From Lentimicrobiaceae bacterium (GTDB taxonomy: Bacteria; Bacteroidota; Bacteroidia; Bacteroidales; UBA4417), in contig JBAZWY010000029.1 in assembly GCA_041660125.1 (NCBI GenBank), positions 2,616 to 66,615 on the forward strand: a stretch of 64,000 nucleotides of DNA. The letters run 5' to 3'. The notes under the pieces were generated by a model. It was given only the letters and a program-made list of their open reading frames with translations. It searched no databases and was not told where the DNA came from. Below are positions 28,337-44,881 of this stretch, piece by piece (positions within the stretch are counted from its first letter, which is position 1; each line of letters starts with the position of its first letter). The position numbers and the translations under genes were made by a program.

Positions 28337-28422
28337 TTCTGTAAAATATTTTTTGTAAAACCTGTTTGCTACAAAAGTAGCGAAATAGACCTTATCCTTT
28401 CGATTATTTATCACAATTCTGA

Positions 28423-31400
28423 TTATTCCACAGGAATCTCATCAATATTATAACGTACATCGGGTGTATTAAGTGTTCCTTCAATATATTTCGCTTCATC
28501 TTTGGAGTCAAAGTACCCCAGCCGTACTTTATAAAGTTGTTCTTCGAAAACGATGAACCATTCTCTGCGCGTACGAATCAGAAGGTCACTCGCAAGTTGT
28601 TCGGCACTGGTCCTGCTTGTAAAAGCATCGGCCTGAATATAAAACCTGTGCGATTCGGTTCCTGTATTCCTGCTACCATTAGGAGGCGTTTCAATGAGTG
28701 CATTTCTCCTGGTTTTCGGTTCTTCAGGTTTTTGAATTCTGGTATTGGAATCGTCCACAGCATTAGCAGGGATAGTTTCAGGTTCAGCAGCCTTGTTTTT
28801 CGCTGATTGACGATCCTTCTCTTTACGTTTCTGATCTCTCGATTCTTTATTGTTTTTTAATTCGATAGGTTTCACCACTTCCGAAGTGCCATCCACATAG
28901 TAAGGGACTTCGTTTGTGTTGAGTGTGCCTTCAACAAACGTTGCAGCCTCTTTAGTGTTAAAGTACCCAAGCCTCACTTTATAAAGCCCGTCTTCATAAG
29001 CAACAAACCATCTTTTTAAAGTTAGTTTTAAAAGATCTTTGGCTAATCGTTCAGCATGTACCCTGGAATCAAATGCCCCAGCCTGAATAAAGAACCTGTC
29101 CGATGAAGTAGCTTTGTTTGTTTCATCAATAGTTGGAGTTATAACTGTACCATCTTTGGTCAGTTTAATGGCAGGTTCCGCTGCTTGTGCATGCGCAGGA
29201 AGTTCTTTCTTTGCTTGCGGAATAATTGCTTCATTCTTTATTGCTTTCGGCAATTCCTGTTCCTTACCTGTAGTTTCTTTCAAATCAGGAACTTTTTCAG
29301 GTTCTGCCTGTGTTTTTTGGTTTTCAGCCGGAATAATACTTTGCTGTGGCATGGTTTGTTTCTGACCATCAATTTGCATGTCAACTTTTGGCTGTTTGGG
29401 TATTTCCACACCCTCAGGTTTGTTAACATAGTATTCTATACCGATTTTATTCAGCGACCTTACAATGTTCCTGGCTTCATTTTTAGTTGTAAAATAGCCC
29501 AGCCTTACTTTATAGAGTCCTTTCCCGCAAGCGATAAACCAATTTTGCCCGGTTGTCGCAATAAGTTTAGCAGTTAGTTTGTCGGCATTCGATTTTATAG
29601 CAAAGGCACCGGCCTGAATGAAATATCCATTTTGCGGATGAAGACTATCCTCACAATCAAAGGATGGAATTATAGAAGCAACATTATTAATAGTAGAAGG
29701 TTTTTCAGGTCCTTTGTCAGATCCTTGTTTCTGTGGTGCAATTTCAGGTCTTTTCTGCTGTTGATCAGGTTTTGTAATAAACGGGATCTCTGAAATGTAG
29801 TAGTATATTCCCGGGGTGTCCAGGGATGTTCTAAAATTATTTGCTGTTTCTTTGGAATCAAAGTAACCAAACCTGACTTTGTAGAGCCCATTTTCCTGAA
29901 TAACAAACCAGCTTTTCGATGTCAGGTTTGATAGATCCCTCATTCGACGCTCAGCATTCCTTTGTTTCTTAAAGGCTCCGGCTTGTATAAAGAATTTATG
30001 TGATTCAGTTGGCTGATTTGAGATATCAAACAGAGGGGTTAACAAAACAGTTTTTTTTGTAGTTACTGTGAGTTGCTCTTTCGCAGCTGGTTTAATTTCT
30101 GTTTTCTTCTGCTCTGTAACTGCAAGTTCTTCTGTTTCACCTGTTGATTTCAAAAGCTGGAATTCTATATTGTCAATAATATCGCCATAAGTAGTTGCAT
30201 GAATTTCAAATTCAAAACGTTCCGGCTTTGAGACAGCTTTCAGGCGGGATAATTGCATTGTATCAACTTCGGCATAGTAGGAACCCGGGCCCAGACCCAA
30301 ATAATTGAAATATCCGTCAGATTCACTTTGTGTTTTAGCAATAAAATTGTCATTATCATCAAAAATATTAACCTGGATACGCCCTTGCTCTCTGAGGCTC
30401 CCGCCTTTTTGCATATAAATCGTACCATTTATTTCACCCATCACTTTTATAGGAACCTCCAGCAGTTTAAACTGGTTAGGATCCATGAGAATGCTTACAG
30501 TTTTATCCTTTATCTGCCAGGCAATATTGTCAAATTGGGTATCATTAAATTCAAGCATATAGCTTGCAAAAGGTTCCAGATCAAGTATCCTGATGATAGA
30601 ATCTTTCGAATCGGGTAAAATTCTTCCACCGTTGATGCGTAAATCCATACCTTTTGTAATAGGTTCATTATCATCACGATGGTTGTTGTTGTTGATGTCC
30701 AGGAACGGGATTACAGTAAGTCCGGCTCTGCCAACCTGTGTTCGTCTGTCAGCCAGTATGCGGCCGTTTCCACTTCCGAAGGCAAAGCTACCTCTTGCAC
30801 TCTGTCCGGTCATTATATAATCATTCGTAACTCTGGTATTAAGGCTGACCTGGGCAAAGGAAAGGTCGTACCTGAATGTTAATTCGACGCTGTTTATGTT
30901 ATTGCGAATATTATTTTCCCATACAAGTGAAAGATTGCATCTTGGCGAAAAATTATTTTCTAACTCTGCTTTGGTGTAAATCAGGCTATTATTCGAAAAA
31001 TCATATTGTACCTGTGGCCTGAAAGAGAGGGTTTTGAAAAACCTGAATCCAAGCCCAAGGTTACCATAAATAAAAGGGTCATATTTGCCCAGCCAGTTTG
31101 CGTTTCCGGTAAAATTTGCACTTACTCCATTAAAAAAAGTTGAGATGGTAGCCTCAGCAGTTGAATAGGTGGTTTCTCTCAAAATATTCTGAGAATAGGA
31201 TAAGCGGCTATAAACCTTAAATTTCTTTATATAAATTGGGATTGATACCCGTATCTTTCTTTCTTCCAAGTAGTTAAATGTGATGGCTTTCTGTTCGTTT
31301 GCATATTTGGTATAATCAATATCAAAAACAAAATTGGATGGCAAACTGTAGCTTAACAGAGCTTTAGTCCGGACACCATAAGCATATTCACCATTTAACA

Positions 31401-32769
31401 GAACATTGCCCAATAGCTGAACTGATCCATTTATAAAAGGGATAGAAGGCGCTGAGCTGATTGATGACAAGTATTCAATACCACCACCAACAGTTAAGTG
31501 TCTGTTTATACCAAAGTTAACTTCTCCATGAGTGAAAATACTATGACTTGTATCCTGAACCATAGCCCCAGCTATGGTATATTGAAATTCCCCGGAAGGC
31601 AAGAAATTGAATGGAATATTAATGTGCTCTTCTTTAAGTCTTTCTTCTCCCCACGGACCATAAAACTTTATGAGTACATCTGAAGATCCATACACTAGAG
31701 GAATATCGAATTTGTAGAACCCTGAAGCATCAGCAGTTGTAAAATCGACGATTACGTTATTGATATACAGTTCAACCGTCCATCCCGGCTCTGTAAAATC
31801 CGACATGGTATAACTACCAAACGACCTGCGGTAAGTCGTTGGTGTATTGGTAATTACAGTTCCTAAAAGCGGGGAATAAATACTTGCTATAGAGCGAGAT
31901 GCAATTTTACCTACCGTAATCTGTTTAACAAGTTTTGTGTCATTGTTTGCCCATCTCCAGTGATATTGCTGTTGCCTTTTTTCAAAATTATTCCTGGATG
32001 AATAATTAAGTTCAATATTGGTTTCTCCGCCCAGAAATTCGGTACCAAGCCCTAGCATAGCCCGGGTTTCGCTGGTTCCTCCGGTAACCTGATTTGAATA
32101 AATAGCCCAGTCGGCCATTCCTCCCCTGAAAAGATGATATTTCCGTTTGTAAGTAGTATCAACCTTGATTTCGCCACGTAAACGGCTTATGTTCTTACGC
32201 ATCTGTTCGAGCCGTAATTCCTTTATAACCGGTAACTCGTGACTGGTTTTGAGCTCAACCGAGAGGCTGCTGAAATTAAATCTGCAATCCAGGCCGAATA
32301 TTTTTCCATACTGATCCAGCCGTAATGCAAGGCTGGTTGTTTCGGTATTTAGTAGTTCATCCTTATTAAGTTGTATAAGTTTTCCATCAATAAATATGGT
32401 TCGGCTTTCCTGGCTGATGATGTATTTATTGTTTTCATCTAAAAAAAAACCGCTGATCGTATCGTTAAATTCGGAAGTTTGCTGGTTGATTTTCAGGCAT
32501 TGAAATAATTCGGATATAGGCAGATAAATCTGATCATTTTTATATATGGCAGTGACATCAAATCCACCTATGCCCTGGACATTTAAAAAAACAGATATTT
32601 CTTCATAATCCTTGTCTGAATCCTGGGCATGTAAAAAGGTGGTGGAAGAAAGAGCAAATAAAATTAATAGTATAAATCTAAAAATTCCCTTACTGTATTT
32701 ACTGAATTGCATCCTAACTGACAAAATTATTGCCACAGATTCACAATCTGCCAGGGGTGCAACTTTCAT
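28423..32769 (-). CDS. Usher-like outer-membrane protein fused to four C-terminal SPOR (peptidoglycan-binding) repeats
   Basis: 1448 aa.
- Start and export: signal peptide FILLILFALSSTTFLHA|QD, with a likely true start at M20 (32712).
- Usher-like part, aa ~50-870: a beta-strand-rich barrel-length region; a plug-like segment GWTVELYINNVIVDFTTADASGFYKFDIPLVYGSSDVLIKFYGPWGEE; and a CarboxypepD_reg-like sandwich GRIQVNIFDDNDNFIAKTQSESDGYFNYLGLGPGSYYAEV.
- SPOR part, aa 923-1444 (nt 28438..30003): four copies of F(F/Y)IQAGAF...WF....GLYKVR(F/L)GYF..K.EA, separated by K/E/P/Q-rich linkers. Confidence 0.6.
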   Translation of the reverse strand: MKVAPLADCESVAIILSVRMQFSKYSKGIFRFILLILFALSSTTFLHAQDSDKDYEEISVFLNVQGIGGFDVTAIYKNDQIYLPISELFQCLKINQQTSEFNDTISGFFLDENNKYIISQESRTIFIDGKLIQLNKDELLNTETTSLALRLDQYGKIFGLDCRFNFSSLSVELKTSHELPVIKELRLEQMRKNISRLRGEIKVDTTYKRKYHLFRGGMADWAIYSNQVTGGTSETRAMLGLGTEFLGGETNIELNYSSRNNFEKRQQQYHWRWANNDTKLVKQITVGKIASRSIASIYSPLLGTVITNTPTTYRRSFGSYTMSDFTEPGWTVELYINNVIVDFTTADASGFYKFDIPLVYGSSDVLIKFYGPWGEERLKEEHINIPFNFLPSGEFQYTIAGAMVQDTSHSIFTHGEVNFGINRHLTVGGGIEYLSSISSAPSIPFINGSVQLLGNVLLNGEYAYGVRTKALLSYSLPSNFVFDIDYTKYANEQKAITFNYLEERKIRVSIPIYIKKFKVYSRLSYSQNILRETTYSTAEATISTFFNGVSANFTGNANWLGKYDPFIYGNLGLGFRFFKTLSFRPQVQYDFSNNSLIYTKAELENNFSPRCNLSLVWENNIRNNINSVELTFRYDLSFAQVSLNTRVTNDYIMTGQSARGSFAFGSGNGRILADRRTQVGRAGLTVIPFLDINNNNHRDDNEPITKGMDLRINGGRILPDSKDSIIRILDLEPFASYMLEFNDTQFDNIAWQIKDKTVSILMDPNQFKLLEVPIKVMGEINGTIYMQKGGSLREQGRIQVNIFDDNDNFIAKTQSESDGYFNYLGLGPGSYYAEVDTMQLSRLKAVSKPERFEFEIHATTYGDIIDNIEFQLLKSTGETEELAVTEQKKTEIKPAAKEQLTVTTKKTVLLTPLFDISNQPTESHKFFIQAGAFKKQRNAERRMRDLSNLTSKSWFVIQENGLYKVRFGYFDSKETANNFRTSLDTPGIYYYISEIPFITKPDQQQKRPEIAPQKQGSDKGPEKPSTINNVASIIPSFDCEDSLHPQNGYFIQAGAFAIKSNADKLTAKLIATTGQNWFIACGKGLYKVRLGYFTTKNEARNIVRSLNKIGIEYYVNKPEGVEIPKQPKVDMQIDGQKQTMPQQSIIPAENQKTQAEPEKVPDLKETTGKEQELPKAIKNEAIIPQAKKELPAHAQAAEPAIKLTKDGTVITPTIDETNKATSSDRFFIQAGAFDSRVHAERLAKDLLKLTLKRWFVAYEDGLYKVRLGYFNTKEAATFVEGTLNTNEVPYYVDGTSEVVKPIELKNNKESRDQKRKEKDRQSAKNKAAEPETIPANAVDDSNTRIQKPEEPKTRRNALIETPPNGSRNTGTESHRFYIQADAFTSRTSAEQLASDLLIRTRREWFIVFEEQLYKVRLGYFDSKDEAKYIEGTLNTPDVRYNIDEIPVE

Positions 32770-32773
32770 CGTA

Positions 32774-33292
32774 TTATTGTTGGATAAAAGTTATTGTAAA
32801 AAAGCCTAAATAGTCTCCTGCAGGGTTGGCCAGTTTGTTGCCAATGGTTAGTGTACCTCCAATGCGGACTTCCGTGTTGGTGCTCTTTGTATTGATAAAG
32901 GGAGAATGGGGTACTGAAGAATTTATCTGCATAGACATTGACCAACTCCCCATGCTTAAAACAGTAGGGCTTCCGAAATCAATATTTATGATTGATCCTG
33001 GAATGGCATCAACTTCAAAAATTGCAGGGTAATATGAATGACTTTGGTATGTTAAAACCACATCTCCGGTAGTGGACCGTGATCCCTGAGGGTCAATTGT
33101 TACAGTTCCCCCGGAATTACCCTGGATAATTGCGCCGAAACTCAGATTTTGAAATGTTCTGACCTGCAAAGGACGCGGAGGATTCTCCTGTGCATTGGCC
33201 GAAAAACAAAGAAGGATCAGGGCTATACTGCTAAAAATAGAGTGTAAGGCTTTGTAATGAATGGTATTATATAGTTGGCTCGGTTTTTTCAT
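32774..33292 (-). CDS. DUF4402/SCPU-like pilin-fold protein lacking the long N-terminal extension
   Basis: 172 aa with a signal peptide ending SANA|QE. It has the core FQNLSFGAIIQGNSGGTVTIDPQGSRSTTGDV...PAIFEVDAIPGS...IDF, as in the other pilin paralogues. Only ~16 Pro-rich residues precede the LxFG motif, against ~24 in the others, and the C-terminus is FIQQ rather than YN. The start overlaps the stop of the 2411-aa gene (ATGA at 33289-33292). Confidence 0.55.
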   Translation of the reverse strand: MKKPSQLYNTIHYKALHSIFSSIALILLCFSANAQENPPRPLQVRTFQNLSFGAIIQGNSGGTVTIDPQGSRSTTGDVVLTYQSHSYYPAIFEVDAIPGSIINIDFGSPTVLSMGSWSMSMQINSSVPHSPFINTKSTNTEVRIGGTLTIGNKLANPAGDYLGFFTITFIQQ

Positions 33293-36200
33293 TTTGGAAT
33301 ATAAATTTTATGCGAACACAATCCTTGCGATGAATATAGTGTTAAAATATACATACCGGCATGAAGATAATGATCTATTTCATGCAACCCATTTCCAAAA
33401 AGGTTCTGTTGAAGCATAACCTGGCCCAGCATGTTGCTGATAATCAGACGTGAATCCTTTTCAGAAGCGAGTTTTACATAAACATTAAGTTTTCCGTTTT
33501 CAATATTTGCATTAAACGTATTGTTATCAACAAAAGTATCCGTGAGTTCACTTTCGCTGAATAGCAGAACAAACCTGTTTTCGAGCATACCTTTGGCCAG
33601 ATGAACGCGGTATTCGGGATTTACCTGCAGATTCTGAATCTTGCCGGTTATCGCATCCGAAAGATAAACATAAAGGCCGGTTGGCATATTTAAAATAGCT
33701 GTAGCTTTAAATGTAACCCAATTTTCCTGTTCTGTTTTTAAACCCAATGGTACTTTTGTGATACTATCACTTGGGTATGGAATTGCACTGATCGATAATT
33801 TGTCAGCCTTTGGAGTAACTGCATATAAATTTGGAACACGAACATCTGTATTCATTAATTTCAACGCATCCAGAAGCTGGTCGAATGAGGTTGATGCATA
33901 ATCATCAAAATATACGACTGCATGATCAGGTGTTTTCTCGTTTTCGTAAGCAGCAGTAAGCCTGATCATAGGTTGCGTTTGAACTTCAGCTGATTTATGA
34001 AAAGCAGGCGAAAGGTTGTTAACACGCACCCGATTGTCCATGCCCAGGGTGGCCGATACCGGATATGATCCGTCGGAAACATGGATAAAAAATCCCTGCA
34101 TGGATGGAATTATGCTTCCTGCAGTGTCATTACTCGACACACCGTTTATATATGTACTGTATGTTCCGGTATAAGGGTCGGTTGTACCGGCATCAAAAAA
34201 GTATAATGCATTATCTATATTGGTTTTGGTCCAGCCAGTTGTTGCATTCCAGTCGATAGGAGAGGGGTATGGATTTCCAATAAGGTTGAATCCTTTGGTG
34301 TATAAACGATCGTGATTATAAAGTGTTAAGGAGGTTCCAATATTATTATTTACAACACCGGTAATATTAACAGTTTTGGTAATTGGCGAATTGCCGAAAT
34401 TTGCGGCATATCCTTGCATAGGAATTAAAGGTTCAGTTGTCGTTATATACTTCGACCAGCCTGTAGTATAGATTAAAACTCCTGAAGAGTCACGGTGATT
34501 GTCTTCGTCATATTTATACAGCATTGGGAACGATGCAGCAAGATCAATATCATCGGCAAGTTCGTTAACCGTAGATGCCTGGAAGGGAGAACTGATATAT
34601 TTGTAACCGTAACCCGATGGAAGGTAACGCTGCATGGTCACATTCCCTGTTACTGAACCTGTTCCCGAACCATCAATAAGCGCTGTTTGCGCTGCTGATG
34701 ATACAAGTGTTAAGTTTCCTGATGAACTGAGGTTCCCGTTTTGCGCATTTACTACACCGGTAACTTTAAGCGGTCCCAGCAATGTGACTCCTGATGGGTT
34801 ATTGACAACCAAATTATAAATTTCATTATTTAAAAATGAAGCTGCAGGAACAAATTGAGCCGAAGTGCCTGCATATACAATAGTTGAGCTTGCAGCGGAA
34901 GAATTAATTATGGCACCGTTCGAAAAATTTAAATCACCATGCAACGTGAGTTTATAATTATTGGTTAAGATTCCGGCAGTAAGAGTTAACGTATTTGAAA
35001 CGCTAACGTCTTTTGAAAGCGTAAGTCCTGCACTATTGTTACTGGTAAGATTATTGGCACTTGTTAGTCCGTTTCCTGATATCTGACCCGATGCGCCATT
35101 ATAGCTATAATTGGCGCTACTATTATATGTTCTTGGTCCATTAAATTGCACGGAGCCACTATTCCCGGAAAGTGAAATTCCGGCAGGATCGGCGGTTATT
35201 AAACTAGCTCCGCTATTTAAAATAAAATGCGAAGCTCCGGCAATATTACCATAAGGCGTATCATTTAGAATATATGTTCCGAAATCAATCGTTCCATTTA
35301 CGATAAAATCGGCATAATATTTTGCTTCAGAGGCGTCGCCTGTTAAAGTAATATTTGATCCAAGTTTTACTCTACTTCCAGCGTTTGCTGTATATGTAGT
35401 CCAGATAGAAGCGCTTGCAATGGAAAAGGTTACCGTTTGTAATGAACTACCACTAAATATGATTTGACCATTTGTTGCTCCGGGACCATTTGTTGTTATT
35501 GAACCTGATCCGGCAGAATTTGTCAAATTACCTGCAATATTAAGTATCGATATTGCCCCATTTCCTGTTGGGTTAAAATCCAAAACTCCACCGGTTTGTA
35601 TGTAATTACCCGCAATAGTCAAAGTATTTGATTGAGTAGTACTTATGCTTACTCTAAAAGTGCCTGCACTAAGTGTGAAATTCCCATTAACAACAATATT
35701 GCCGGTTTCAGTTTTAGCGCCCGTTCCACTAATAGTGAGATTGTTGAAAGTACTTGAACCAATATTACTTGCTCCTGAACTATTAAAAATTACGGTACTC
35801 GAATTCGGGATAAAAGTACCGTTGTTCGTCCAACTTCCGCTAGCAGTCAGGGTATTTGAACCCGTGATAGTGAGTGATGCTCCCGGATCAATTGTGATAT
35901 TATTACAAACGGCTGCTGTTCCGATAACTGGCTGATTTGGAGCCCCCGATGGAATGGTCACATCAGTAGTTGAAGTAGGAATCCCACCACACCAATTGGA
36001 AGCTGTGTGCCAGTCGGTACTTGTAATGCCAAGCCATGAACCTCCTGTTGTAGTTGTAATTGTTGCAGTATTGCCCGAAGAGGCAGTAGTTGCACAGCTA
36101 GTTAATTTCAGACTATTGATAGTCAAATTTGTAGTGCCGGCTGATGCAAGAACGGGTGTATTAAAAGTTCCGCTGTTGCCACTGCTGACAATCAATGCTA

Positions 36201-39200
36201 CATCGGTAGCACCTTGTGGATTGGCACCGGTCAGCGTGTAATTAACTGTATATGTTCCGTTTGGTAAATTTGTCGCACTTATTGTAATGACAGATGAGCT
36301 ACCTGAACAAGTATTTGTTGCACTTGTTAATAGACCGCTCAAATCAGGAATGTCATTTACTGTTATCATTACTACATTCGAATTTGCCGATGAACATACT
36401 CCACTGGTTACTATCGCCCTGTAATAACGTGTTGCTGAAAGCGTCCCCATTTGAGCGCTGGTTAAAAGTGATGCAGTAGCGCCTGCAACATTATTAAATG
36501 TAATATTATCAATAGATGTTTGCCATTGGATTGTACCGGTTTGACCAGTTAAAGTGATATCGGAAGGGGAACTTCCACTACAAATCGTTTGATTGGATGT
36601 AGCTGTACCACCAGCACTTATTGGATTAAGAGTTATAGTAATTGTATTCGAAGTAGCCGGATTGCCACTTGAACAAGTTACATTGGAAGTTAGCATACAA
36701 GTAACCACATCATTATTAGCAGGAGTATATGAATAAGTTGAACTATTGGTTCCGACATTATTTCCGTTCACTTTCCATTGGTATGCAGGGGTTGTTCCTC
36801 CATTGGTGGGAGTTGCTGTGAAAGTAGCGCCGGTTCCTGCACATACCGGATTTGCAGAGGCAGCTATAATTACACTGACCGGAAGATTTGTGCTTACTGT
36901 TACAGCTAACGTCCTAGCAGCACTTGTTCCACAACTGTTTCCAGCCGTTACCGTGATATTCCCGTTTTGCCCGGCTGAGCCTGTGGTAACTGTTATCGAA
37001 TTAGTTCCTGCACCTGAAGTAACAGACCAGCCTGTCGGAACAGTCCATGTGTATGTTGTAGCATTTGTAACAGTACCGATACTATAGGTTTGGTTAGTCA
37101 ATCCGGGGCATTGAGATGTTGTGCCTGAAATTACTCCGGGAGTGGCAGGCGCTGCCGGGCTTACAGTAATAGTCGCTGTATCAGTTATAGTATTTGAACA
37201 TGCGGGAGCAGATTGATAAATTACACTTACTAAATTGTAAGAAAATATTCCAGCAGTACTGGTGGCAGCAGCCAATGTTGCCGTTGTGCTTGCACCAACG
37301 TTAATTGTCGCTTGATTTGCTCCGTTAATATTATAAGTAATTGAAACAGGTACAGTTTGAGGATTGGTAAAAGTTATATTTGGACTAGTTGCGTTTTGGC
37401 AAACGGTTGTTGTTCCGCTGATTGTTGCGACAGGAGTTGGACGAACTGTCAATATTGCTGAATTCGATTCATTGGAAGCCACATAAGGAATAGGAGCAAC
37501 ATTATTTGCACTGGATACAAGCGCTTTCCTGATCAGGTAATAAGTTCCTGCTGCATTAAATGGAGCTATGGCTGATGATGGGGTATAAGTTGCTGCCGTT
37601 TCTCCTGAAATATCGGTCCATGGACCAGTACCTGATATTGTGCTGTATGCCCATTGGTAGCCGGTACCGGAAAGCGTAATTCCTGAAGGCAATGTTCCGT
37701 AAATATCCCCGCTGATGGCTGCTCCAGTATTTCCCAGGCAAATACTTTGAGCAATATTAGTGGAGAGTGAATTGGCTAAAACCAGGGTCAGGTTTTGAAA
37801 TATAACCTGGTTTCCACCTCCGTTTTCATAAAAATCGTACACAAGTGAACTGGCTCCATTCAGGCTCATCAAAACCCTGGCACGGGTGCTAAAACTCTGG
37901 TCTTTCCAATTATCATATAAAAGTGTTCCATCAACAGTCAAACGACTTCCGTCATCCGATCCCAAATCTACGACATATAAGCCCTTTTTTGTTGAATTCA
38001 TCCGGTACCTAACAGAAAAGGTTGTTGTGTAGATGGATCTCGTTGTTGAATTCGAGGTAACATTAAAACAATTCGTACTACCGCCAAAACTCTCATTAAA
38101 CGTTTCCGCCTCAGTGTAATGTCCAATGTAATTTAAAAAATTGGTTCCATCATAAACATGACCAATCCATGAATCTGTTCCAGCTGCGTTTTGGTCATCT
38201 GTAGAAGTAGTGGGGTAAGTGGCTGTTACCAGAGTACGTGAACTTTCACATGCACCACCACTTAAGATTGAAACCCAATAATCGGTTGTACTGGCAAGAA
38301 CCGGGGTGGTATATGTATTATCCAAATTATTCGAGCTTGTTTTCAAGAGTGTCCCGCCACTTGCTGCATTATACCATTTGTAAAACTGCCCGGATACTGC
38401 CCCGGAAGCGGATAAAGTGGCTGTAGAGCCGATACAGATAAATCCTCCGGTTGTACCTGGTGGGGTTGGAATTGTATTTACCGTTGCAACAACGGAGGTA
38501 CGAGTAGCAGTAGTACACCCATTATTAGTTGCATCAACGTAATAAGTTTTTGTTGCTGAAAGAGATGGGGTTGTATAACTTGTACCTGTTCCAAGTGAGG
38601 CGCCACCTATAGATGCCGCATACCAGTTGATCGTTCCGGCTGATGCCGCAGCGTCTAAAGTTACGGTTCCTGATCCACACGTTGATCCGGGTGTTGTTCC
38701 TGTAATGGTTGGAATGGAATTCACTGTTAAATTACTGCCGTTATTCGTTCCGGCAATCGCAGGACTACTACTCACAACACGTATCCTGTAACCTGCTCCG
38801 GTTGCAGTACCGGCTGGAAAGGTTCCTGAAATAGTTCCGGCAGTGGTTGATGTAAGTGTTCCTATATTAACTGGTGATGCAAAACTTCCGACTGAATTGG
38901 ATAACTGGGCTGTAAATACATTGCCCGAAGTAAAGGTTCCGCTAATGGTATATGGAATCGAAACTGAAGCCCCGGCACAAAAGGGTGAGCCGGTGATTGT
39001 GCCGGTTGAGATAGTAGGTATAATGTTTATGGTATAATCTTCTACCTCGCCATCGTAACCAATATCACAGGAAGCAGGATAAGCATAGTACTTGGCTGAA
39101 ATTCGAATTCTGGTGTTACCTGAAACGGCTCCGGAAGGAATATTTATGCTGAATGGACTTAAATTGGTTGGCCCATTGGCAGTGTTTGTTGCAACTCCGA

Positions 39201-40524
39201 GGTCAACTACTTCGCCCGCATCGATAAAGTTTCCATTTTGATTCCAGTCAATCCAGGCACGGGCATAAACGTTATAGTTACCATCAGTATTTAAGTTTAC
39301 TGTTAGGTTATAGGAACTGCCGGCTATTACACTGGTTGATAAGGAAGTATAATCACTGTAACCAGCAGGTTTTGCACTAATATTGTTTATTGTATTAAAA
39401 TTTACTAATGTTATACTGGTTTGATAGGTCATGTTACCATTTGAAGGACAATATGGAATTACAGTAGTTCCGGTTACAGCCACGTTCTGTGAAGCAGCAC
39501 CACCACCGCTATTTGTAATATTTCCGTTATAATTGGTATTTGGAGAAGTAGGTTTAAATCTGACATAAATCGTTATGGCAGCAAGCGTGCTGCTTGCATA
39601 AGGAACACTGACAGAGGAGCTAAATCCAAAGCCAGAGGTTAATGAAACTTCGAAATTTGTTGGTGCCGTGATTGAAATATTTCCAGGTGCTCCGGTCAGA
39701 AAGGTTCCTGATAAAGAGTATGTGGATTCTAAAGATGTACCTCCGCTTAGTACATAACCAAAATTAATGCTTGATGGACTTACTGAAAGTGTAGGTACCG
39801 GAACCCAGGAAATGACGACCAATCCGTTAGCTCCTGAACTTCCTGTCCTGTCAAAGCCGCTATTTGTTACAGCGCCACTGCCTCCCCCGCCATATGTGGA
39901 TCCATTTATTCCATTGTTACTTCCACTTACTCCATATCCTCCATTACCTCCATTTAGTAAGGTTCCCGTACCTGCGGATTCTCCTAAAGCATTCCCTCCT
40001 GCTCCAGTACTACCTGCGCCACCACCGCCACCACCTGAAAATGTGGTTCCCCCACTAGCGCCGTTGCCACCAGCAAATTTTATAGTTCCTATAGAGCTGG
40101 CAAATGATCCACCACTACCACCTGTGGTTGTATTATTGTTAACACCACTACCACCGGCAGCTACTACTGAATTTGTATTGAAGCTTGAGTTCGATCCCGA
40201 ACCACTTGCGTATCCGCCTATACCTACTATAATGGAATAAGAATTTCCTGGAATTACACTAACTTCACTACTTGCATAGGCACCACCACCACCTCCACCA
40301 CCTCGTTGGTTCCAGGAAGTAATTGTACTGCCACCCCCTCCAGCGCCCCAGCATTCTACTTTAATGCTGGTAACTCCTGCAGGAACTGTAAAAGTACCGT
40401 TGGAAGTAAATGTTTGTGTCGTCTGCCCCCACCCATAATTACCAAACCCTTGCCATACGACTAAAACAGCGATAAACAGAATCGTCCGCAAACAGGTCTT
40501 ACAAGCATGGAATATTTTTATCAT
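33289..40524 (-). CDS. Giant (2411 aa) mosaic surface protein with a T9SS type-A C-terminal sorting domain
   Basis: Has a signal peptide. Domains by eye:
- aa 36-240: glycine-rich domain (TFTVPAGVTSIKVECWGAGGGG...).
- aa ~358-502: GEVED domain ending YDGEVEDYTINI.
- Repeated Ig-like modules (INWYAASIGGASLGTGTSYTTPSLSATKTYYV type).
- aa ~783-912: PA14-like domain (LYVVDLGSDDGSRLTVDGTLLYDNW...YDFYENGGGNQV).
- Long beta-helix-like N/S/T/G repeats.
- Last ~75 aa: LIISNMLGQVMLQQNLFGNGLHEIDHYLHAGMYILTLYSSQGLCSHKIYIPK, a Por/T9SS CTD. Confidence 0.8.
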   Translation of the reverse strand: MIKIFHACKTCLRTILFIAVLVVWQGFGNYGWGQTTQTFTSNGTFTVPAGVTSIKVECWGAGGGGSTITSWNQRGGGGGGGAYASSEVSVIPGNSYSIIVGIGGYASGSGSNSSFNTNSVVAAGGSGVNNNTTTGGSGGSFASSIGTIKFAGGNGASGGTTFSGGGGGGAGSTGAGGNALGESAGTGTLLNGGNGGYGVSGSNNGINGSTYGGGGSGAVTNSGFDRTGSSGANGLVVISWVPVPTLSVSPSSINFGYVLSGGTSLESTYSLSGTFLTGAPGNISITAPTNFEVSLTSGFGFSSSVSVPYASSTLAAITIYVRFKPTSPNTNYNGNITNSGGGAASQNVAVTGTTVIPYCPSNGNMTYQTSITLVNFNTINNISAKPAGYSDYTSLSTSVIAGSSYNLTVNLNTDGNYNVYARAWIDWNQNGNFIDAGEVVDLGVATNTANGPTNLSPFSINIPSGAVSGNTRIRISAKYYAYPASCDIGYDGEVEDYTINIIPTISTGTITGSPFCAGASVSIPYTISGTFTSGNVFTAQLSNSVGSFASPVNIGTLTSTTAGTISGTFPAGTATGAGYRIRVVSSSPAIAGTNNGSNLTVNSIPTITGTTPGSTCGSGTVTLDAAASAGTINWYAASIGGASLGTGTSYTTPSLSATKTYYVDATNNGCTTATRTSVVATVNTIPTPPGTTGGFICIGSTATLSASGAVSGQFYKWYNAASGGTLLKTSSNNLDNTYTTPVLASTTDYWVSILSGGACESSRTLVTATYPTTSTDDQNAAGTDSWIGHVYDGTNFLNYIGHYTEAETFNESFGGSTNCFNVTSNSTTRSIYTTTFSVRYRMNSTKKGLYVVDLGSDDGSRLTVDGTLLYDNWKDQSFSTRARVLMSLNGASSLVYDFYENGGGNQVIFQNLTLVLANSLSTNIAQSICLGNTGAAISGDIYGTLPSGITLSGTGYQWAYSTISGTGPWTDISGETAATYTPSSAIAPFNAAGTYYLIRKALVSSANNVAPIPYVASNESNSAILTVRPTPVATISGTTTVCQNATSPNITFTNPQTVPVSITYNINGANQATINVGASTTATLAAATSTAGIFSYNLVSVIYQSAPACSNTITDTATITVSPAAPATPGVISGTTSQCPGLTNQTYSIGTVTNATTYTWTVPTGWSVTSGAGTNSITVTTGSAGQNGNITVTAGNSCGTSAARTLAVTVSTNLPVSVIIAASANPVCAGTGATFTATPTNGGTTPAYQWKVNGNNVGTNSSTYSYTPANNDVVTCMLTSNVTCSSGNPATSNTITITLNPISAGGTATSNQTICSGSSPSDITLTGQTGTIQWQTSIDNITFNNVAGATASLLTSAQMGTLSATRYYRAIVTSGVCSSANSNVVMITVNDIPDLSGLLTSATNTCSGSSSVITISATNLPNGTYTVNYTLTGANPQGATDVALIVSSGNSGTFNTPVLASAGTTNLTINSLKLTSCATTASSGNTATITTTTGGSWLGITSTDWHTASNWCGGIPTSTTDVTIPSGAPNQPVIGTAAVCNNITIDPGASLTITGSNTLTASGSWTNNGTFIPNSSTVIFNSSGASNIGSSTFNNLTISGTGAKTETGNIVVNGNFTLSAGTFRVSISTTQSNTLTIAGNYIQTGGVLDFNPTGNGAISILNIAGNLTNSAGSGSITTNGPGATNGQIIFSGSSLQTVTFSIASASIWTTYTANAGSRVKLGSNITLTGDASEAKYYADFIVNGTIDFGTYILNDTPYGNIAGASHFILNSGASLITADPAGISLSGNSGSVQFNGPRTYNSSANYSYNGASGQISGNGLTSANNLTSNNSAGLTLSKDVSVSNTLTLTAGILTNNYKLTLHGDLNFSNGAIINSSAASSTIVYAGTSAQFVPAASFLNNEIYNLVVNNPSGVTLLGPLKVTGVVNAQNGNLSSSGNLTLVSSAAQTALIDGSGTGSVTGNVTMQRYLPSGYGYKYISSPFQASTVNELADDIDLAASFPMLYKYDEDNHRDSSGVLIYTTGWSKYITTTEPLIPMQGYAANFGNSPITKTVNITGVVNNNIGTSLTLYNHDRLYTKGFNLIGNPYPSPIDWNATTGWTKTNIDNALYFFDAGTTDPYTGTYSTYINGVSSNDTAGSIIPSMQGFFIHVSDGSYPVSATLGMDNRVRVNNLSPAFHKSAEVQTQPMIRLTAAYENEKTPDHAVVYFDDYASTSFDQLLDALKLMNTDVRVPNLYAVTPKADKLSISAIPYPSDSITKVPLGLKTEQENWVTFKATAILNMPTGLYVYLSDAITGKIQNLQVNPEYRVHLAKGMLENRFVLLFSESELTDTFVDNNTFNANIENGKLNVYVKLASEKDSRLIISNMLGQVMLQQNLFGNGLHEIDHYLHAGMYILTLYSSQGLCSHKIYIPK

Positions 40525-40623
40525 AGTAACGCAAGCAACACAAAAGTTTTACAAGACTTTGTATTCCTAATTATTTAAGCTGAGTAAATAAATTCAATTT
40601 GTAAAAGTCAGTTGTTAGAAGTC

Positions 40624-41481
40624 TTAATGTAAAGGAAACTCCTTTTCGGCAAATACTTCTGCTTTTACATCATTTTGTGCCTGGAATTTTAAAATCAGCT
40701 TGCCTTTGGTATAATCTACTCCGGGCACATTCCGTAATTGCATTTTAAAAACACGTAGTTTGTTGGGTGTATAAACAGCCAGGCCACGTACTATGCCTAC
40801 TTCTACAGCGTCTCCCTGGTCGGGTGCCCACATAACAGATAAATCGCCATAGACTGATTTGTCACCCGAACGTTCAAAAGTAACTGTCAGGTTTGGAACC
40901 GTATCGGTTTTTAAATCCAGATTTATATTAGTTAAATCAACATGCAATTGTAAATCACCATTCCTGATGATGACTGGAATACTGATGCCGAAAATAGGCA
41001 CAAGTTTAACGCCGATAGATGTTGAATCTTTAGCGACATTTTCATCGCCTAAAAGTTTTTCATTGGGAACTGCCCTGAAATATATATGCGACCGGTATTC
41101 TCCGGTTTGCATGCCAGGTAATTTACGGAATTGCATCCGTATAACCTGCGAGCCGTTTGGAGCAAGGGTTACTGATCGCGGGAAAAACCTGAGATACCTG
41201 TCAGCAAACATCTGTCCTGAATCAGGCACTTCAATTTGCTCAAATCCGCCAGTCTCTGTCATTCGGTACTGAACAAACGAAACAGAATACTTTGCCGTAT
41301 CAGCGCCTGTATTGGCCAGCGTAAGTTCCTGTGATTGTTTGTTGCCTTCAAATACAACCCTGCGTGGTGTTATCAGTAAGTTCCCCTGTGCATTGGAATG
41401 GTTCGATAACAGTACTAATGCAGAAATAATTGCCAGTAGGCAAGTGATTGAAATTCTGCTTTTTATTCCGGTTTTTGGCAT
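40624..41481 (-). CDS. PapD/CsuC-like periplasmic pilus chaperone
   Basis: 285 aa with a signal peptide. LLITPRRVVFEGNKQSQELTLANTGADTAKYSVSFVQY and FFPRSVTLAPNGSQVIRMQFRKLPGMQTGEYRSHIYFRAVP match the conserved N-domain strand patterns of CU chaperones (v.p.r..l......~l.l.N.g... / PP.f.l.pg..q.vR........E..Y.l...e.P). The length fits two Ig-like domains. Confidence 0.6.
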   Translation of the reverse strand: MPKTGIKSRISITCLLAIISALVLLSNHSNAQGNLLITPRRVVFEGNKQSQELTLANTGADTAKYSVSFVQYRMTETGGFEQIEVPDSGQMFADRYLRFFPRSVTLAPNGSQVIRMQFRKLPGMQTGEYRSHIYFRAVPNEKLLGDENVAKDSTSIGVKLVPIFGISIPVIIRNGDLQLHVDLTNINLDLKTDTVPNLTVTFERSGDKSVYGDLSVMWAPDQGDAVEVGIVRGLAVYTPNKLRVFKMQLRNVPGVDYTKGKLILKFQAQNDVKAEVFAEKEFPLH

Positions 41482-41648: not shown

Positions 41649-41671
41649 TCTTCAAAATAAATTTTTGATAT

Positions 41672-42193
41672 TTAATTATACGCAAAGGTTACGTTAAAAG
41701 CGCCCGAATACAATCCCACCGGGTTATCAATCATTGAACCTACATTCAGGGTCGCGCCCAGGTAAACGAACTGCTGTCCGTTTGCCAGCACCCCGGTTCC
41801 GGTGCCGGCCTGCGGGAACGACACCCAATCGCTGACGAGCATGGTTTTGTTTGAGTTTTGTTGGGTTAACACCGCCGGATTGGTCGGCAACTGAATGGAG
41901 AAAGCCGCATCGGGAGCGCCGGTAAGGTAAAAGATGCCTGAATTGGCTGATCCCCCGCTCAGGATAACAGAGCCATTGGTTGTTCGTACCCCGTCGGGTG
42001 AAACAATCACCTGTCCTCCCTGAACCTCGGGCGAAAATTTGCCAAAGTTAAGCTGCGCGGTTTCGGTGGCGGTGAGCGCTGCAATTACTTCTGCAAAAGC
42101 ATGTGCTGAGATGCTTGCCTGTGCCTGCGCTTTTTGAGCCGTTATTCCAGTTGCCAAAGCAAAGCCTAAAAACAGCATACTAAGTTTTTTCAT
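41672..42193 (-). CDS. DUF4402/SCPU-like pilin paralogue B1
   Basis: 173 aa counted from MKKLSMLFLGF; the track ORF's 27-aa extension overlaps a terminator hairpin. Signal peptide AQA|QA. N-terminal extension SISAHAFAEVIAALTATETAQLNFGKF. Core GGQVIVSPDGVRTTNGSV...AAFSIQLP. C-terminal strand FNVTFAYN. Confidence 0.6.
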   Translation of the reverse strand: MKKLSMLFLGFALATGITAQKAQAQASISAHAFAEVIAALTATETAQLNFGKFSPEVQGGQVIVSPDGVRTTNGSVILSGGSANSGIFYLTGAPDAAFSIQLPTNPAVLTQQNSNKTMLVSDWVSFPQAGTGTGVLANGQQFVYLGATLNVGSMIDNPVGLYSGAFNVTFAYN

Positions 42194-42258
42194 TTTGCTT
42201 TTTACTATTGGAGTATGAACTAAAGGTATGATATTTAACTGCCACTTCATTTGAGTAC

Positions 42259-42291
42259 AAAAAAAAAGCTGCATTAAGCAGCATTTTTTTT
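42259..42291 (-). terminator. Intercistronic hairpin/terminator between pilin A1 and pilin B1
   Basis: gctgc-attaa-gcagc flanked by A9 and T8. On the minus strand this is a hairpin followed by T9. Confidence 0.6.
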
Positions 42292-42304
42292 ATTAGAATA
42301 TGTT

Positions 42305-42823
42305 CTAGTTATAGTTAACAGTCACAGTCAGGTCTGTAGTATTGGTATAAAGTCCAGCTGCTTGTAAACCTGCAACAGTAAGAGTAGCGCCTACATATAT
42401 ATCTTGAGTTCCAGCTGTAAGTACACCTGTAGAACTAGGGGTGCTTGTATATGTACCAACAGACATTGTATGTGATGCACCATCAGAAAGACTGATTGAA
42501 GCAGCGGGGAGCGAAATAGAGTAAGTGGAAGTTCCAAGACCTGTTACAACAAACTTAGCAGCAGTAAAAACTCCGGTAACTGCTGGAAGAGTAACTCCAC
42601 CTGTAGCAGTACGTGTGCCAGCAAGCGATGGATCAAGTATAACAGTTCCACCTGTATTACTAACTGAAATATTGCCAAAATTCAAGTCTACAGTTTTGTT
42701 GATAGCAATCGGAGTAATAATGTTTGCAGATGCATTAGCAGTGGCATGAACCTGAGCAAAAGAAGTTGCAGCGGATCCGAGAACTACAAGAGCGATGGCG
42801 AAGAGTTTGGTAATGTTTTTCAT
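42305..42823 (-). CDS. DUF4402/SCPU-like pilin paralogue A1 (candidate major subunit)
   Basis: 172 aa with signal peptide SFA|QV. N-terminal extension VHATANASANIITPIAINKTVDLNFGNI. Core TGGTVILDPSLAGTRTATGGVTLP...AAKFVVTGLGTSTYSISLP. C-terminal strand LTVTVNYN. Very Thr/Ala/Gly-rich, as in structural pilins. Confidence 0.6.
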   Translation of the reverse strand: MKNITKLFAIALVVLGSAATSFAQVHATANASANIITPIAINKTVDLNFGNISVSNTGGTVILDPSLAGTRTATGGVTLPAVTGVFTAAKFVVTGLGTSTYSISLPAASISLSDGASHTMSVGTYTSTPSSTGVLTAGTQDIYVGATLTVAGLQAAGLYTNTTDLTVTVNYN

Positions 42824-42891
42824 TGTTTTAAGTTTTTTAAGTTGTTATGAGTTGGATTGTTTTTTTATCAAATTGAGCGATGTAAAGAATA

Positions 42892-42908
42892 ATTCAGAAA
42901 TCGTGCCA
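42892..42908 (-). promoter_or_regulatory. Sigma54-like -24/-12 candidate upstream of pilin A1
   Basis: The minus strand reads TGGCACGATTTCTGAAT. The -24 TGGCAC is perfect. At the -12 position it has CTGA where the consensus is TTGC, so the match is imperfect. It lies ~70 nt upstream of the ATG at 42823. I found no TAnnTTTG box in this leader. Confidence 0.3.
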
Positions 42909-43660
42909 TGAGAAATTAAGGAAAATAGAAAATAGTTAAAAATAATAAAAAATAGTTCTATATGTGAATGATAATCAATAAGATAAAAATATTAAAATTA
43001 TTTCAGAAAAGAGGATTTGTGCTTAAATGGATAGAAGACTTGTTAGATGATGTTATCAAATTGAGACAAGTAAAATCGCAAATTGAGAAGTGTCTCAATA
43101 ATAATGAGTACGGGGATATTAAACCAGGATCAGGTTTGGTTAAGACGTGTTCACTTTATCAATAAGGAAATGGATAGAAAAATCTGGGTTATAGTACTAT
43201 TTGGAGATTGTCAACAGTAAAACGGTAAAGAAAATGGAGGATCAAATTATGTTATTGATCAGGACGTAGAATTTGAGCATATAGTTAAAACGCAAAACCA
43301 TCAATGGAATTAACCCATGATGGCAGATGCGACTCAAATACAACGAATGATTTCCAACTCTCTATTCGTATTTCTTTTATTCAGTACTGTTTTTAGCTTA
43401 CTGAATTTTATAACCTGGTAATGAACTGTAAAATTTGCCCCGGTTCCTGCTCATGGTTTTCGCGGAAAATTATTCACCTGTTTTTTATGGGTTTTAGAAA
43501 AGCAGTACGACGAAATAGGTTTTATTTGTTGGCGGTTTATGTTTTCGTTCCTATTAAAAATAATTCCTTTGAATTAAAGATGATGAATGAATGTTTATGC
43601 CGGGCTGATATATAAATGTCTTGTTTTGAGAATGCCAGTAAAAGCGTTGATGCTGATCTT

Positions 43661-44182
43661 TTAATTATACGCAAAAGTCACATTAAAAGTCCCTGCATAC
43701 AAACCAACGGGGTTATCGACCAGAGAGCCTACCTGCAGGGTAGCGCCGAGCGAAACATATTGTTGTCCATCGGCCAGCACCCCGGTTCCTGTTCCAGCCT
43801 GCGGGAACGACACCCAGTCGCTGACGAGCATGGTTTTATTTGAATTCTGTTGGGTTAATACCGCTGGATCGGTTGGCAACTGAATGGAGAAAGCAGCATC
43901 GGGAGCGCCGGTAAGATAAAAGATGCCTGAATTGGCAGATCCCCCACTTAGTATAACAGAGCCATTGGCGGTACGAATGCCATCGGGCGAAACGATAACC
44001 TGTCCACCATGCACTTCGGGCGAAAACTTTCCGAAGTTAAGTTGCGCGGTTTCGGTGGCAGTGAGCGCTGCAATTACTTCAGCAAAAGCATGTGCTGAGA
44101 CGTTTGCCTGTGCCTGCGCTTTTTGAGCCGTTATTCCAGTTGCCAAAGCAAAGCCTAAAAACAGGATACTAAGTTTTTTCAT
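43661..44182 (-). CDS. DUF4402/SCPU-like pilin paralogue B2
   Basis: 173 aa counted from MKKLSILFLGF. Differs from B1 at 15 of 173 residues by my count. Confidence 0.6.
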   Translation of the reverse strand: MKKLSILFLGFALATGITAQKAQAQANVSAHAFAEVIAALTATETAQLNFGKFSPEVHGGQVIVSPDGIRTANGSVILSGGSANSGIFYLTGAPDAAFSIQLPTDPAVLTQQNSNKTMLVSDWVSFPQAGTGTGVLADGQQYVSLGATLQVGSLVDNPVGLYAGTFNVTFAYN

Positions 44183-44247
44183 TTTGCTTTTTACTATTGG
44201 ATTATGAATTAAATGTATGATATTTAACTGCCACTTCATTCGAGTAC

Positions 44248-44281
44248 AAAAAAAAAGCTGCATTAAGCAGCATTTTTTTTT
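44248..44281 (-). terminator. Intercistronic hairpin/terminator between pilin A2 and pilin B2
   Basis: Same gctgc-attaa-gcagc hairpin as at 42268-42282, here flanked by A9 and T9. Confidence 0.6.
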
Positions 44282-44294
44282 ATTAGAATGTGTT

Positions 44295-44813
44295 CTAGTT
44301 ATAGTTAACAGTAACAGTCAGGTCTGTAGTATTGGTATAAAGCCCAGCTGCTTGTAAACCTGCAACAGTAAGAGTAGCGCCTACATATATATCTTGAGTT
44401 CCAGCTATAAGTACACCTGTAGAACTAGGGGTGCTCGTATAAGTACCAATAGACATTGTATGTGATGCACCATCAGAAAGAGTGATTGAAGCAGGGGGGA
44501 GCGAAATAGAGTAGGTGGAAGTTCCAAGACCTGTTACAACAAACTTAGCAGCAGTAAAAACTCCGGTAACTGCTGGAAGAGTAACTCCACCTGTAGCAGT
44601 ACGTGTGCCAGCAAGCGATGGAGCTAGAACAACAGTTCCACCTGTATTACTAACTGAAATATTCCCATAATTCAAGTCGACAGTTTTGTTGATAGCAATC
44701 GGAGTAATAATGTTAGCAGATGCCTCAGCAGTGGCATGAACCTGAGCAAAAGAAGTAGCAGCGGATCCGAGAACTACGAGAGCGATGGCGAAAAGTTTAG
44801 TAATGTTTTTCAT
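44295..44813 (-). CDS. DUF4402/SCPU-like pilin paralogue A2
   Basis: 172 aa counted from MKNITKLF; the track ORF to 45059 is an implausible AT-rich extension. Differs from A1 at 8 of 172 residues by my count. Confidence 0.6.
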   Translation of the reverse strand: MKNITKLFAIALVVLGSAATSFAQVHATAEASANIITPIAINKTVDLNYGNISVSNTGGTVVLAPSLAGTRTATGGVTLPAVTGVFTAAKFVVTGLGTSTYSISLPPASITLSDGASHTMSIGTYTSTPSSTGVLIAGTQDIYVGATLTVAGLQAAGLYTNTTDLTVTVNYN

Positions 44814-44881
44814 TGTTTTGAGTTTGTTTAAGTTATTTATGAGTTGGATTGTCTTTATCGAATTGAGCGATGTAAAGTATA

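Follow-up and report, generated by a model that had tools for sequence, protein, structure and literature searches.

A giant, putatively T9SS-exported protein with a conserved C-terminal module and a variable passenger in a chaperone-usher-like operon of Bacteroidota

The known pili of the Bacteroidota are type V pili. Within the Mfa operon of P. gingivalis, Mfa5 is the sole product that harbors a type IX secretion system (T9SS) signal; it depends on that system for its export and is still found in the fimbria, while the pilins use another route (PMC7835359). Chaperone-usher pili are assigned to the Proteobacteria in published accounts; archaic chaperone-usher systems are listed for the Proteobacteria, Cyanobacteria and Deinococcus-Thermus but not for the Bacteroidetes (PMC4654587), and the literature searched here contained nothing relevant on chaperone-usher pili in Bacteroidota and no mention of the DUF4402 family of proteins. 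In this article we describe a locus within 64,000 nucleotides (nt) of DNA from a Lentimicrobiaceae bacterium (Bacteroidales; contig JBAZWY010000029.1 of assembly GCA_041660125.1), a stretch referred to as the window, in which the gene for a protein of 2411 residues, the giant, is found between the genes for a chaperone-like and an usher-like protein. With a probability of roughly 0.55, we regard this locus as a sigma-54-regulated operon for a Bacteroidota-specific chaperone-usher-like fibre, with the giant as its standard accessory adhesin, composed of a conserved module and a swappable passenger.

In the list of open reading frames (ORFs), the giant corresponds to 33289-40524, beginning with an ATG; like the other genes and elements of the operon described below, it lies on the minus strand. 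The 3' junction of the gene reads CCAAAATGAAAAAACC, where the TGA of the giant (33291-33289) overlaps the ATG (33292-33290) of a small pilin-like ORF (32774-33292), which in turn stops 4 nt before the usher-like ORF (28423-32769). On its other side the giant is separated by 99 nt (40525-40623) from the upstream gene for the 285-residue chaperone-like protein (40624-41481), and a terminator scan of this gap revealed no terminator-like hairpin. An earlier reading, made from the letters of the DNA alone (the sequence-only reading), had described these same junctions, and the ORF coordinates agree with it.

The arrangement was compared with that in relatives. A scan of GTDB species genomes with an usher profile gave 584 relatives, of which the best-scoring 80 loci were kept; these represent the best-scoring relatives of one usher clade and not a random sample of the family. 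With profiles for the pilin, the chaperone, the usher and the module, the last being the conserved C-terminal part of the giant, 85 non-duplicate loci were then sorted. The order module - pilin - usher is found in 62 of the 85. In seven others the order is chaperone - pilin - usher with a module protein (of about 1000-1130 residues where complete) upstream of the pilin genes, nine have chaperone - pilin - usher with no module gene seen, and seven are truncated. The sequence-only reading had asked whether the giant always sits between chaperone and usher; a module-bearing gene does so in these 62 loci, though not in all. The stop codon of the module gene overlaps the pilin start in 46 of the 62 loci, by 4 nt (n = 29), 1 nt (n = 10) or 8 nt (n = 7), and the gap from chaperone to module is mostly less than 60 nt, where the starts used for these counts are those of the longest ORFs, so that short gaps and overlaps are approximate. 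The slot is filled by complete module proteins of 378 to 3036 residues, with 4412 residues in one relative, and the organisms that carry a module gene between the chaperone and the pilin-usher pair encompass Bacteroidales, Lentimicrobiaceae, Prolixibacteraceae, Rikenellaceae, Chitinophaga, Pedobacter and Polluticoccus. Six module homologues were also looked up individually. Five of them, from Chitinophaga sp. CF118, Pedobacter, Polluticoccus soli and two metagenomic genomes, are found in the order pilin(s) - chaperone - [variable extra genes] - module - DUF4402 - usher-like, and five of the six are stand-alone forms of about 530-580 residues.

The giant gene is a standard part of the operon and not an insertion. 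No direct or inverted repeats and no mobile-element scars are present in its flanks, no integrase or transposase is found among the neighboring genes, and the only tRNA gene of the window (11428-11503) does not adjoin the locus; with the synteny also kept, an origin by insertion or from a mobile element was rejected. The argument that the tight coupling speaks against a random insertion, which had been made from this one sequence, is thus borne out by the shared slot, the recurrent stop/start overlap and the lack of scars. The same order, with an usher identity of 54%, is also seen in L032, a contig labeled as Omnitrophica WOR_2, which is probably a mis-binned contig from Bacteroidota.

What is conserved of the giant is only its last 470-550 or so residues. 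This module consists of a core of about 385 residues (residues 1939-2323; 33556-34710), which gives 619 bits with a hidden Markov model of the core and has 38% identity to the slot protein of locus L004, followed by a divergent T9SS type-A C-terminal sorting domain, or CTD (residues 2334-2410; 33295-33525). The core is characterized by the invariant motifs GFNLxGNPYPSPxxW and MQGFFxH. Sub-profiles were able to split the core from the CTD of about 78 residues, and both are found together in 71 ORFs. With the last 474 residues of the giant as the query, 1092 homologues were recovered, many of which are proteins of about 570 residues that comprise a signal peptide, a short repeat stalk and the module. 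At E <= 1e-30, a HMMER scan of 1.84 billion cluster representatives gave at least 7,531 module proteins. Among the 150 matches listed, nearly all carry the module at their very C-terminus, and their lengths span about 575 to more than 5000 residues.

The remainder of the giant is very different in this respect. Residues 1-1859 (34948-40524) make up a putative signal peptide and a mosaic passenger, the former suggested by reading of the hydrophobic N-terminus (TILFIAVLVVW). Pfam matches above the cut-off are Gly_rich_2 (residues 40-240), GEVED (420-500), two Ig_7 domains and PKD_6 (1125-1208), and a repeat region is also present. The glycine-rich, GEVED and Ig-like domains of the sequence-only reading were thus recovered, but its PA14 domain stays below the cut-off (21.3 vs 24 bits) and is only suggestive. 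Among 72 ORFs that bear the module, the last 550 or so residues of the giant are common to about 70, in comparison to only about 3-16 for each 100-residue block of its first 1800 or so residues. The closest relatives, whose ushers are 72-79% identical, match the giant only over the last 530-620 or so residues, at 54-70% identity, and the upstream 2500 residues or more of their slot proteins are unrelated to it. Similarly, in L004, where the usher is 60% identical, the slot holds a 1371-residue fn3/G8 protein that matches the giant solely at residues 1938-2397. The best matches to the passenger come instead from distant lineages, such as a Prolixibacteraceae metagenome-assembled genome (MAG) with 56% identity over residues 9-682. 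Because close relatives keep the module only, and the passenger matches come from distant lineages, the passenger is, as judged from these comparisons, an exchangeable cassette on a fixed C-terminal module, and its replacement by recombination even between close relatives is the best explanation.

A further form of the locus is seen in Chitinophaga, Pedobacter and Polluticoccus, in which a small module protein of about 570 residues is accompanied by separate PTL_trimer and PATR genes between the chaperone and the module (5523-7982 in L005, 5297-7974 in L006, 4893-7874 in L007, 4398-6959 in L088 and 3631-6957 in L089). The intervening gene in L089 carries a C-terminal Gly_rich_2 domain, the domain found at the N-terminus of the giant, and this separate occurrence hints at gene fusion or fission.

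The nature of the CTD bears directly on how the giant is exported. It had been described as a canonical type-A domain from the sequence, a description that now has to be softened: in a scan restricted to the last 492 residues, TIGR04183 reaches 24.1 bits (cut-off 23), a scan of the full-length giant does not report it, and Por_Secre_tail (PF18962) gives 17.1-17.3 bits against a cut-off of 27. Within the module family the match is more general, as TIGR04183 is found in 29 of 32 members and PF18962 in 17 of 32 (E <= 0.01), and several homologues are named as T9SS type-A proteins by NCBI. As expected of a general T9SS signal, the CTD sub-profile is also matched by large, unrelated proteins at their very C-termini. 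An AlphaFold model of the module has a mean predicted local distance difference test (pLDDT) score of 66 and is confident only for a beta-sandwich at about residues 2186-2323 and for the CTD (pLDDT about 80-90). The modeled CTD can be superposed on that of NucA in the T9SS complex (8glk_D), with a template modeling (TM) score of 0.65 and a root-mean-square deviation of 2.8, and also matches DUF3244 CTD-like proteins. The C-terminus of the giant is therefore predicted to be a divergent, borderline type-A CTD with the Ig-like beta-sandwich fold of known CTDs. Genes for proteins with a type-B CTD (CHU_C) adjoin the operon in relatives.

In principle, the giant could instead leave the cell as an usher-exported tip adhesin, in which the module takes the part of a FimH- or CsuE-type pilin domain, the giant is bound by the chaperone in the periplasm and passes the usher ahead of all other subunits, and the CTD-like sandwich is no T9SS signal at all. 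The gene is, after all, inside the operon beside the usher gene and coupled to a pilin, its CTD scores below the Pfam cut-off, and the most conserved segment of the core is modeled at low confidence, as would be expected of a fold completed by a partner strand. However, the recurrence of TIGR04183 across the family, the NCBI names, the occurrence of the same CTD profile on unrelated large proteins and the superposition on a CTD bound in the T9SS translocon all argue for a T9SS signal. A C-terminal pilin domain homologous to the shaft subunits was sought in the module, and a profile-profile comparison with DUF4402 gave a probability of only 0.35%. Moreover, judging from the structures of FimD and PapC, an usher pore is unlikely to admit passengers of 2000-5000 residues that contain globular domains of the PA14-like and Gly-rich kinds, and T9SS export is for this reason favored over the usher. 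Export of the giant by the usher thus appears to be quite improbable.

The usher-like protein (28423-32769) has 1448 residues and consists of two parts. Residues 1-875 (30145-32769; probable start M20) are predicted to form an N-terminal domain, a barrel of about 24 strands with an inserted plug and two C-terminal beta-sandwiches, and the C-terminal tail of about 570 residues (28423-30144) contains four peptidoglycan-binding SPOR domains (Pfam SPOR, E = 6e-44; PDB 1x60). These are joined by low-complexity linkers rich in Lys, Glu and Pro, and the tail gives RlpA/FtsN-type NCBIfam matches. The N-terminal 890 residues gave 2224 matches, mostly in Bacteroidales, Lentimicrobiaceae and Bacteroidota MAGs, and most members of the family carry at least one SPOR domain. 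The AlphaFold model, made from 31 sequences, has a pLDDT of 76.7 and shows about 23-24 barrel strands with an inserted small beta domain. When it was searched against the PDB with Foldseek, the first 18 matches were all FimD or PapC (E = 5e-24 to 4e-12, up to about 900 aligned columns, 9-13% identity), and the next classes, SdrD-type domains and porins, were far behind. The assignment as an usher, made earlier from the sequence, is thus solid for the modeled fold but not for family membership, as Pfam Usher (PF00577) gave no match at E <= 0.01 and is not among the Pfam domains of the 120 homologues listed, and the SPOR domains had not been foreseen. No description of a SPOR-bearing, peptidoglycan-tethered usher was met in the literature searched.

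The chaperone-like protein (40624-41481) is composed of two Ig-like domains and appears to be PapD-like and periplasmic, an assignment that draws on its sub-threshold PapD_N match and on its orthologues. Weak PapD_N matches are seen in 14 of 17 orthologues (best E = 6.6e-5), and the family, with more than 5,000 members, is named as 'molecular chaperone' by NCBI and as 'P pilus assembly chaperone PapD' by JGI. In a weak alignment with PapD, the family-invariant R41 is set opposite R8 of PapD. The PapD and CsuA/B reference sequences used in hhalign comparisons were checked against the PDB.

Five small ORFs of the operon belong to DUF4402 (Pfam, E about 1e-21 to 1e-26). P1 (44295-44813; E = 4e-24) probably starts at the ATG at 44813, where the alignment begins with MKN, although the longest ORF extends to 45059; P2 (43661-44182; E = 8e-25) has its probable start at 44182, also by alignment. 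P3 (42305-42823; E = 2e-26) is a duplicate of P1, and P4 (41672-42193; E = 9e-26; probable start 42193) a duplicate of P2. The last, P5 (32774-33292; E = 4e-21), is the usher-proximal subunit that overlaps the giant. In addition, a small protein of 142 residues is encoded between the regulator and the first pilin (45414-45842), with a weak DUF4402 match (E = 0.027); its N-terminus reads like a signal peptide, and its AEVVESV motif resembles that of P2 and P4. It may represent a divergent sixth DUF4402-like subunit. About half of the non-terminal DUF4402 subunits display, by reading, an A-x-A-x-A-x-[VI] segment after the signal peptide. No conserved lipobox cysteine is found in the DUF4402 alignment. 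A relationship to the SCPU-type pilins (PF05229) and CsuA/B was looked for but not found: when 21 DUF4402 proteins were scanned with Pfam up to E = 5, SCPU/Fimbrial did not appear, although the HMMER filters drop most matches above about 0.1. A pilin role for DUF4402 is therefore suggested by gene context and sequence pattern.

It might be asked whether these genes make a pilus at all. They could instead specify a dedicated outer-membrane device by which the module protein is docked or anchored, or produce a capsule-like surface layer in place of fibres, with the SPOR-tethered barrel serving as a fixed, envelope-spanning anchor. To our knowledge, neither the classical FimD/PapC nor the archaic Csu ushers have a SPOR tail, and DUF4402 is not tied to known pilins by its sequence. 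Set against this are the full-length nature of the FimD/PapC match, including the plug and the terminal domains, the presence of several paralogous small subunits, about half with the alternating Ala-rich N-termini typical of donor strands, and the presence of a periplasmic PapD-like protein. A non-pilus function is consequently considered unlikely.

P5 differs from the other subunits in two ways. Its N-terminus is Pro-rich, with a PPxP motif (here ENPPRP) in all 62 of the module-pilin-usher loci, while the usher-proximal pilin has PFPPP in 13 of the 16 loci with the chaperone-pilin-usher order; such a Pro-rich motif occurs in 0 of 74 other pilins. It also lacks, in the alignment, the alternating Ala-rich segment of about eight residues that is found in other subunits. 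In chaperone-usher systems, the first-assembled tip subunit is devoid of a donor strand. Because P5 has no donor-strand-like segment, it is, by analogy, most simply read as the first-assembled tip subunit, and the conserved start/stop overlap between the module gene and P5 suggests that both are made at matched, low stoichiometry.

Regulation of the operon appears to involve sigma-54. A sigma-54-dependent response regulator with a receiver, an AAA+ activator domain and a Fis-type helix-turn-helix is encoded immediately upstream of the pilin genes, at 46147-47502 (Pfam Response_reg, Sigma54_activat, AAA_lid_14 and HTH_8), and the same kind of regulator gene is found at the equal position in L004. 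By reading, a sigma-54-like -24/-12 element, TGGCAC-N5-CTGA, is located at 44884-44898, about 70 nt before the start of P1, and a second copy at 42894-42908, before P3. The canonical TGGCAC-N5-TTGC was rejected as a marker, since it occurs at chance level in the window, but the relaxed form TGGCAC-N5-NTG[CA] is found upstream of a pilin gene in eight other loci where about 0.4 would be expected (an estimate from a background of 0.023 per kb). Scans for sigma-70 promoters and terminators were at background level overall. The terminator scan did pick out a GC hairpin with a T-run between P1 and P2 (44257-44271), a candidate attenuating terminator, and another between P3 and P4 (42268-42282); the two hairpins are identical (GCTGCTTAATGCAGC) and are followed by T9. 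They may serve as attenuators and so determine how many shaft subunits are made relative to accessory ones. The second promoter-like element lies inside a tandem duplication with a period of 1990 nt and 80-97% identity (41671-43088 and 43660-45078), by which P1, P2 and the promoter-like region gave rise to P3 and P4 with theirs. The stretch of about 570 nt between the two copies (43089-43659) contains no ORF of 80 residues or more. Strong expression of the shaft subunits with weaker read-through into the chaperone, giant, P5 and usher genes would fit these promoters and hairpins, and a fibre of many shaft subunits and few giant and P5 units fits likewise, because the major-pilin genes have their own sigma-54-like promoters, followed by hairpins.

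How the giant and the fibre might be joined can be set out as a series of steps. The giant would cross the inner membrane by Sec and the outer membrane via the T9SS, using its CTD. Its conserved core would then associate, at about 1:1, with the translationally coupled P5, as the first-assembled subunit at the tip of a DUF4402 fibre that is exported by an usher-fold pore tethered to the peptidoglycan by its SPOR domains. The outcome would be a fibre with a variable adhesin on display, much as type V pili carry Mfa5. Of the options raised by the sequence-only reading, two remain the leading models, namely that two export routes contribute to a single surface structure, or that the giant takes the place of a tip adhesin. 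The proposal that two outer-membrane machines build one organelle, with P5 capping the usher-like fibre and the core of the T9SS adhesin docked on P5 at the tip, remains tentative, and we put it forward as a possibility. Its extreme version, in which a PorU-type sortase joins the new C-terminus of the adhesin to the Pro-rich N-terminus of P5 and not to anionic lipopolysaccharide (A-LPS), seems very far-fetched.

Several observations weigh against the operon as we interpret it. The fibre itself is a prediction from the genes. The chaperone-like protein reaches only 18.6 bits against a PapD_N cut-off of 23, with generic Ig/fn3 matches besides, its profile finds no sequence match in the PDB, and the hhalign comparison with PapD is not significant (E = 0.019, probability 2.5%). 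The DUF4402 profile is likewise devoid of a sequence match in the PDB, and hhalign against CsuA/B (E = 0.19, not significant) picks up only the C-terminal G-x-Y...VTV motif. For the module, no known fold could be recovered for the core, as Foldseek gives generic Ig-like matches apart from the CTD; the most conserved motifs of the core and its N-terminal half fall in the poorly modeled stretch; and to these are added the absence of a detectable pilin-like domain and the sub-threshold Pfam score of the CTD given above. None of the genes for the T9SS machinery (SprA, PorV, PorU, GldKLMN) is found within the window. Finally, the contiguous chaperone-pilin-usher order in 16 of the 85 loci, at least three of which lack a nearby module gene despite an upstream flank of more than 6 kb (the complete loci L053, L080 from the cultured Anaerorudis cellulosivorans, and L085), and the sixth of the module homologues looked up, which lies outside such an operon, show that the association is not universal. 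Because module-less loci exist, the fibre machinery does not strictly need an adjacent module gene. Contiguous loci without the giant, with mobile-element scars around it, had been named by the sequence-only reading as the pattern that would tell against it; the first is seen in this minority, seven of which have a module gene upstream of the pilin genes, and the second is not seen. A gene of 694 residues after the usher in L080 was considered as a counterpart of the module and rejected as unrelated.

Another explanation is that the giant is co-regulated with the fibre but independent of it, being an ordinary surface-anchored T9SS adhesin that shares the promoter and regulon of the fibre operon, is made along with the fibre at the time of attachment, makes no contact with the fibre and uses the core as its own stalk or anchor. 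A type-A CTD alone would be enough for export and anchoring, no pilin-like domain is detectable in the core, fibre loci without a module exist as does a module gene outside such an operon, and in seven loci the module gene is at the 5' end, away from P5. Co-regulation, however, leaves unexplained why a core of about 385 residues is kept when the N-terminal part is swapped, and it accounts neither for the slot between the chaperone and the P5-usher pair in 62 of the 85 loci nor for the overlap with P5 in 46, or for the location of five of the six sampled members of the module family in these operons. Independence of the giant from the fibre is accordingly a doubtful, though serious, alternative to the operon with a standard accessory adhesin that we favor.

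The surroundings of the operon are unremarkable, as the rest of the 64-kb window contains ordinary chromosomal housekeeping genes and no mobile-element genes. An inorganic pyrophosphatase gene (27665-28414, minus strand), possibly part of the operon, begins 8 nt after the usher gene, and the same neighbor is found in L001 and L004. On the other side are an ECF sigma factor gene (49483-49989) and, near it, a gene for a MerR-family regulator with B12-binding domains (50394-51353, minus strand), which is CarH-like and possibly light-responsive. Three ORFs have no Pfam match at E <= 1e-4, namely 5915-6391 (plus strand, 158 residues), 12389-13351 (plus strand, 320 residues) and 47712-48317 (minus strand, 201 residues).

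The family to which this locus belongs is very large. It counts over 2,000 usher-like and over 5,000 chaperone-like proteins and at least 7,500 module clusters, and its cultured carriers include Chitinophaga sp. CF118, Pedobacter cryoconitis and Polluticoccus soli. Its significance lies in how it pairs a peptidoglycan-tethered pore of usher fold with a T9SS cargo that looks obligatory and whose passenger is swapped between close relatives. If two machines do build one organelle, then a modular pilus with swappable adhesins would be widespread in environmental Bacteroidota, and it would provide both a tractable model for how the cargo of one secretion system is mounted on the structure of another and a natural scaffold for the display of very large, variable adhesins.

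In comparison to known systems, the giant resembles generic T9SS type-A adhesins, the large Ig/PKD/beta-helix surface proteins of Bacteroidota, in its putative signal peptide, in its mosaic build from Ig-like, PKD and GEVED domains and in its borderline TIGR04183-type C-terminal domain, but differs from them in the extra core of about 385 residues before the CTD and in its genomic tie to a chaperone-usher-like operon. With the Fim and P pili, the locus shares an usher fold that matches FimD and PapC over the full length and a chaperone-like protein that weakly aligns with domain 1 of PapD, with R41 opposite R8; however, usher identity is only about 9-13%, the family models stay below their cut-offs and the adhesin is not a two-domain protein of lectin plus pilin. 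The archaic (sigma) Csu pilus of Acinetobacter (CsuA/B-A-B-C-D-E) is similar in that it has a set of small subunits that are paralogous to each other, a single periplasmic chaperone, a single usher and an adhesin encoded by a gene of its own. By eye, the subunits of both also show LNFG close to the N-terminus and a C-terminal G-x-Y...VTV-x-[YF]. In contrast to Csu, DUF4402 has no significant match to CsuA/B, Pfam Usher is absent, the gene order is different, the usher bears SPOR domains and the adhesin bears a T9SS CTD in place of a pilin domain. The parts of the locus are thus of known kinds, namely an usher fold, a PapD-like chaperone and a T9SS CTD, and it is their combination, together with the core module, the peptidoglycan-tethered usher and the cassette adhesin, that appears to be undescribed.

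In function, the closest parallel is to Mfa5, which is also a large, multidomain accessory adhesin that is encoded in a pilus operon and has a C-terminal T9SS signal (PMC7835359). The resemblance to Mfa5 and the type V pilus is functional only, as there is no sequence relation and the locus encodes neither FimA/Mfa1-fold lipoprotein pilins nor a vWA accessory protein. The shaft here is chaperone-usher-like, whereas type V pilins are sorted as lipoproteins, and the giant has no vWA match but a core of about 385 residues before its CTD and a hypervariable passenger. Were the two-machine proposal true, this locus would represent the second, independent case after Mfa5 in which the T9SS supplies the accessory protein of a pilus.

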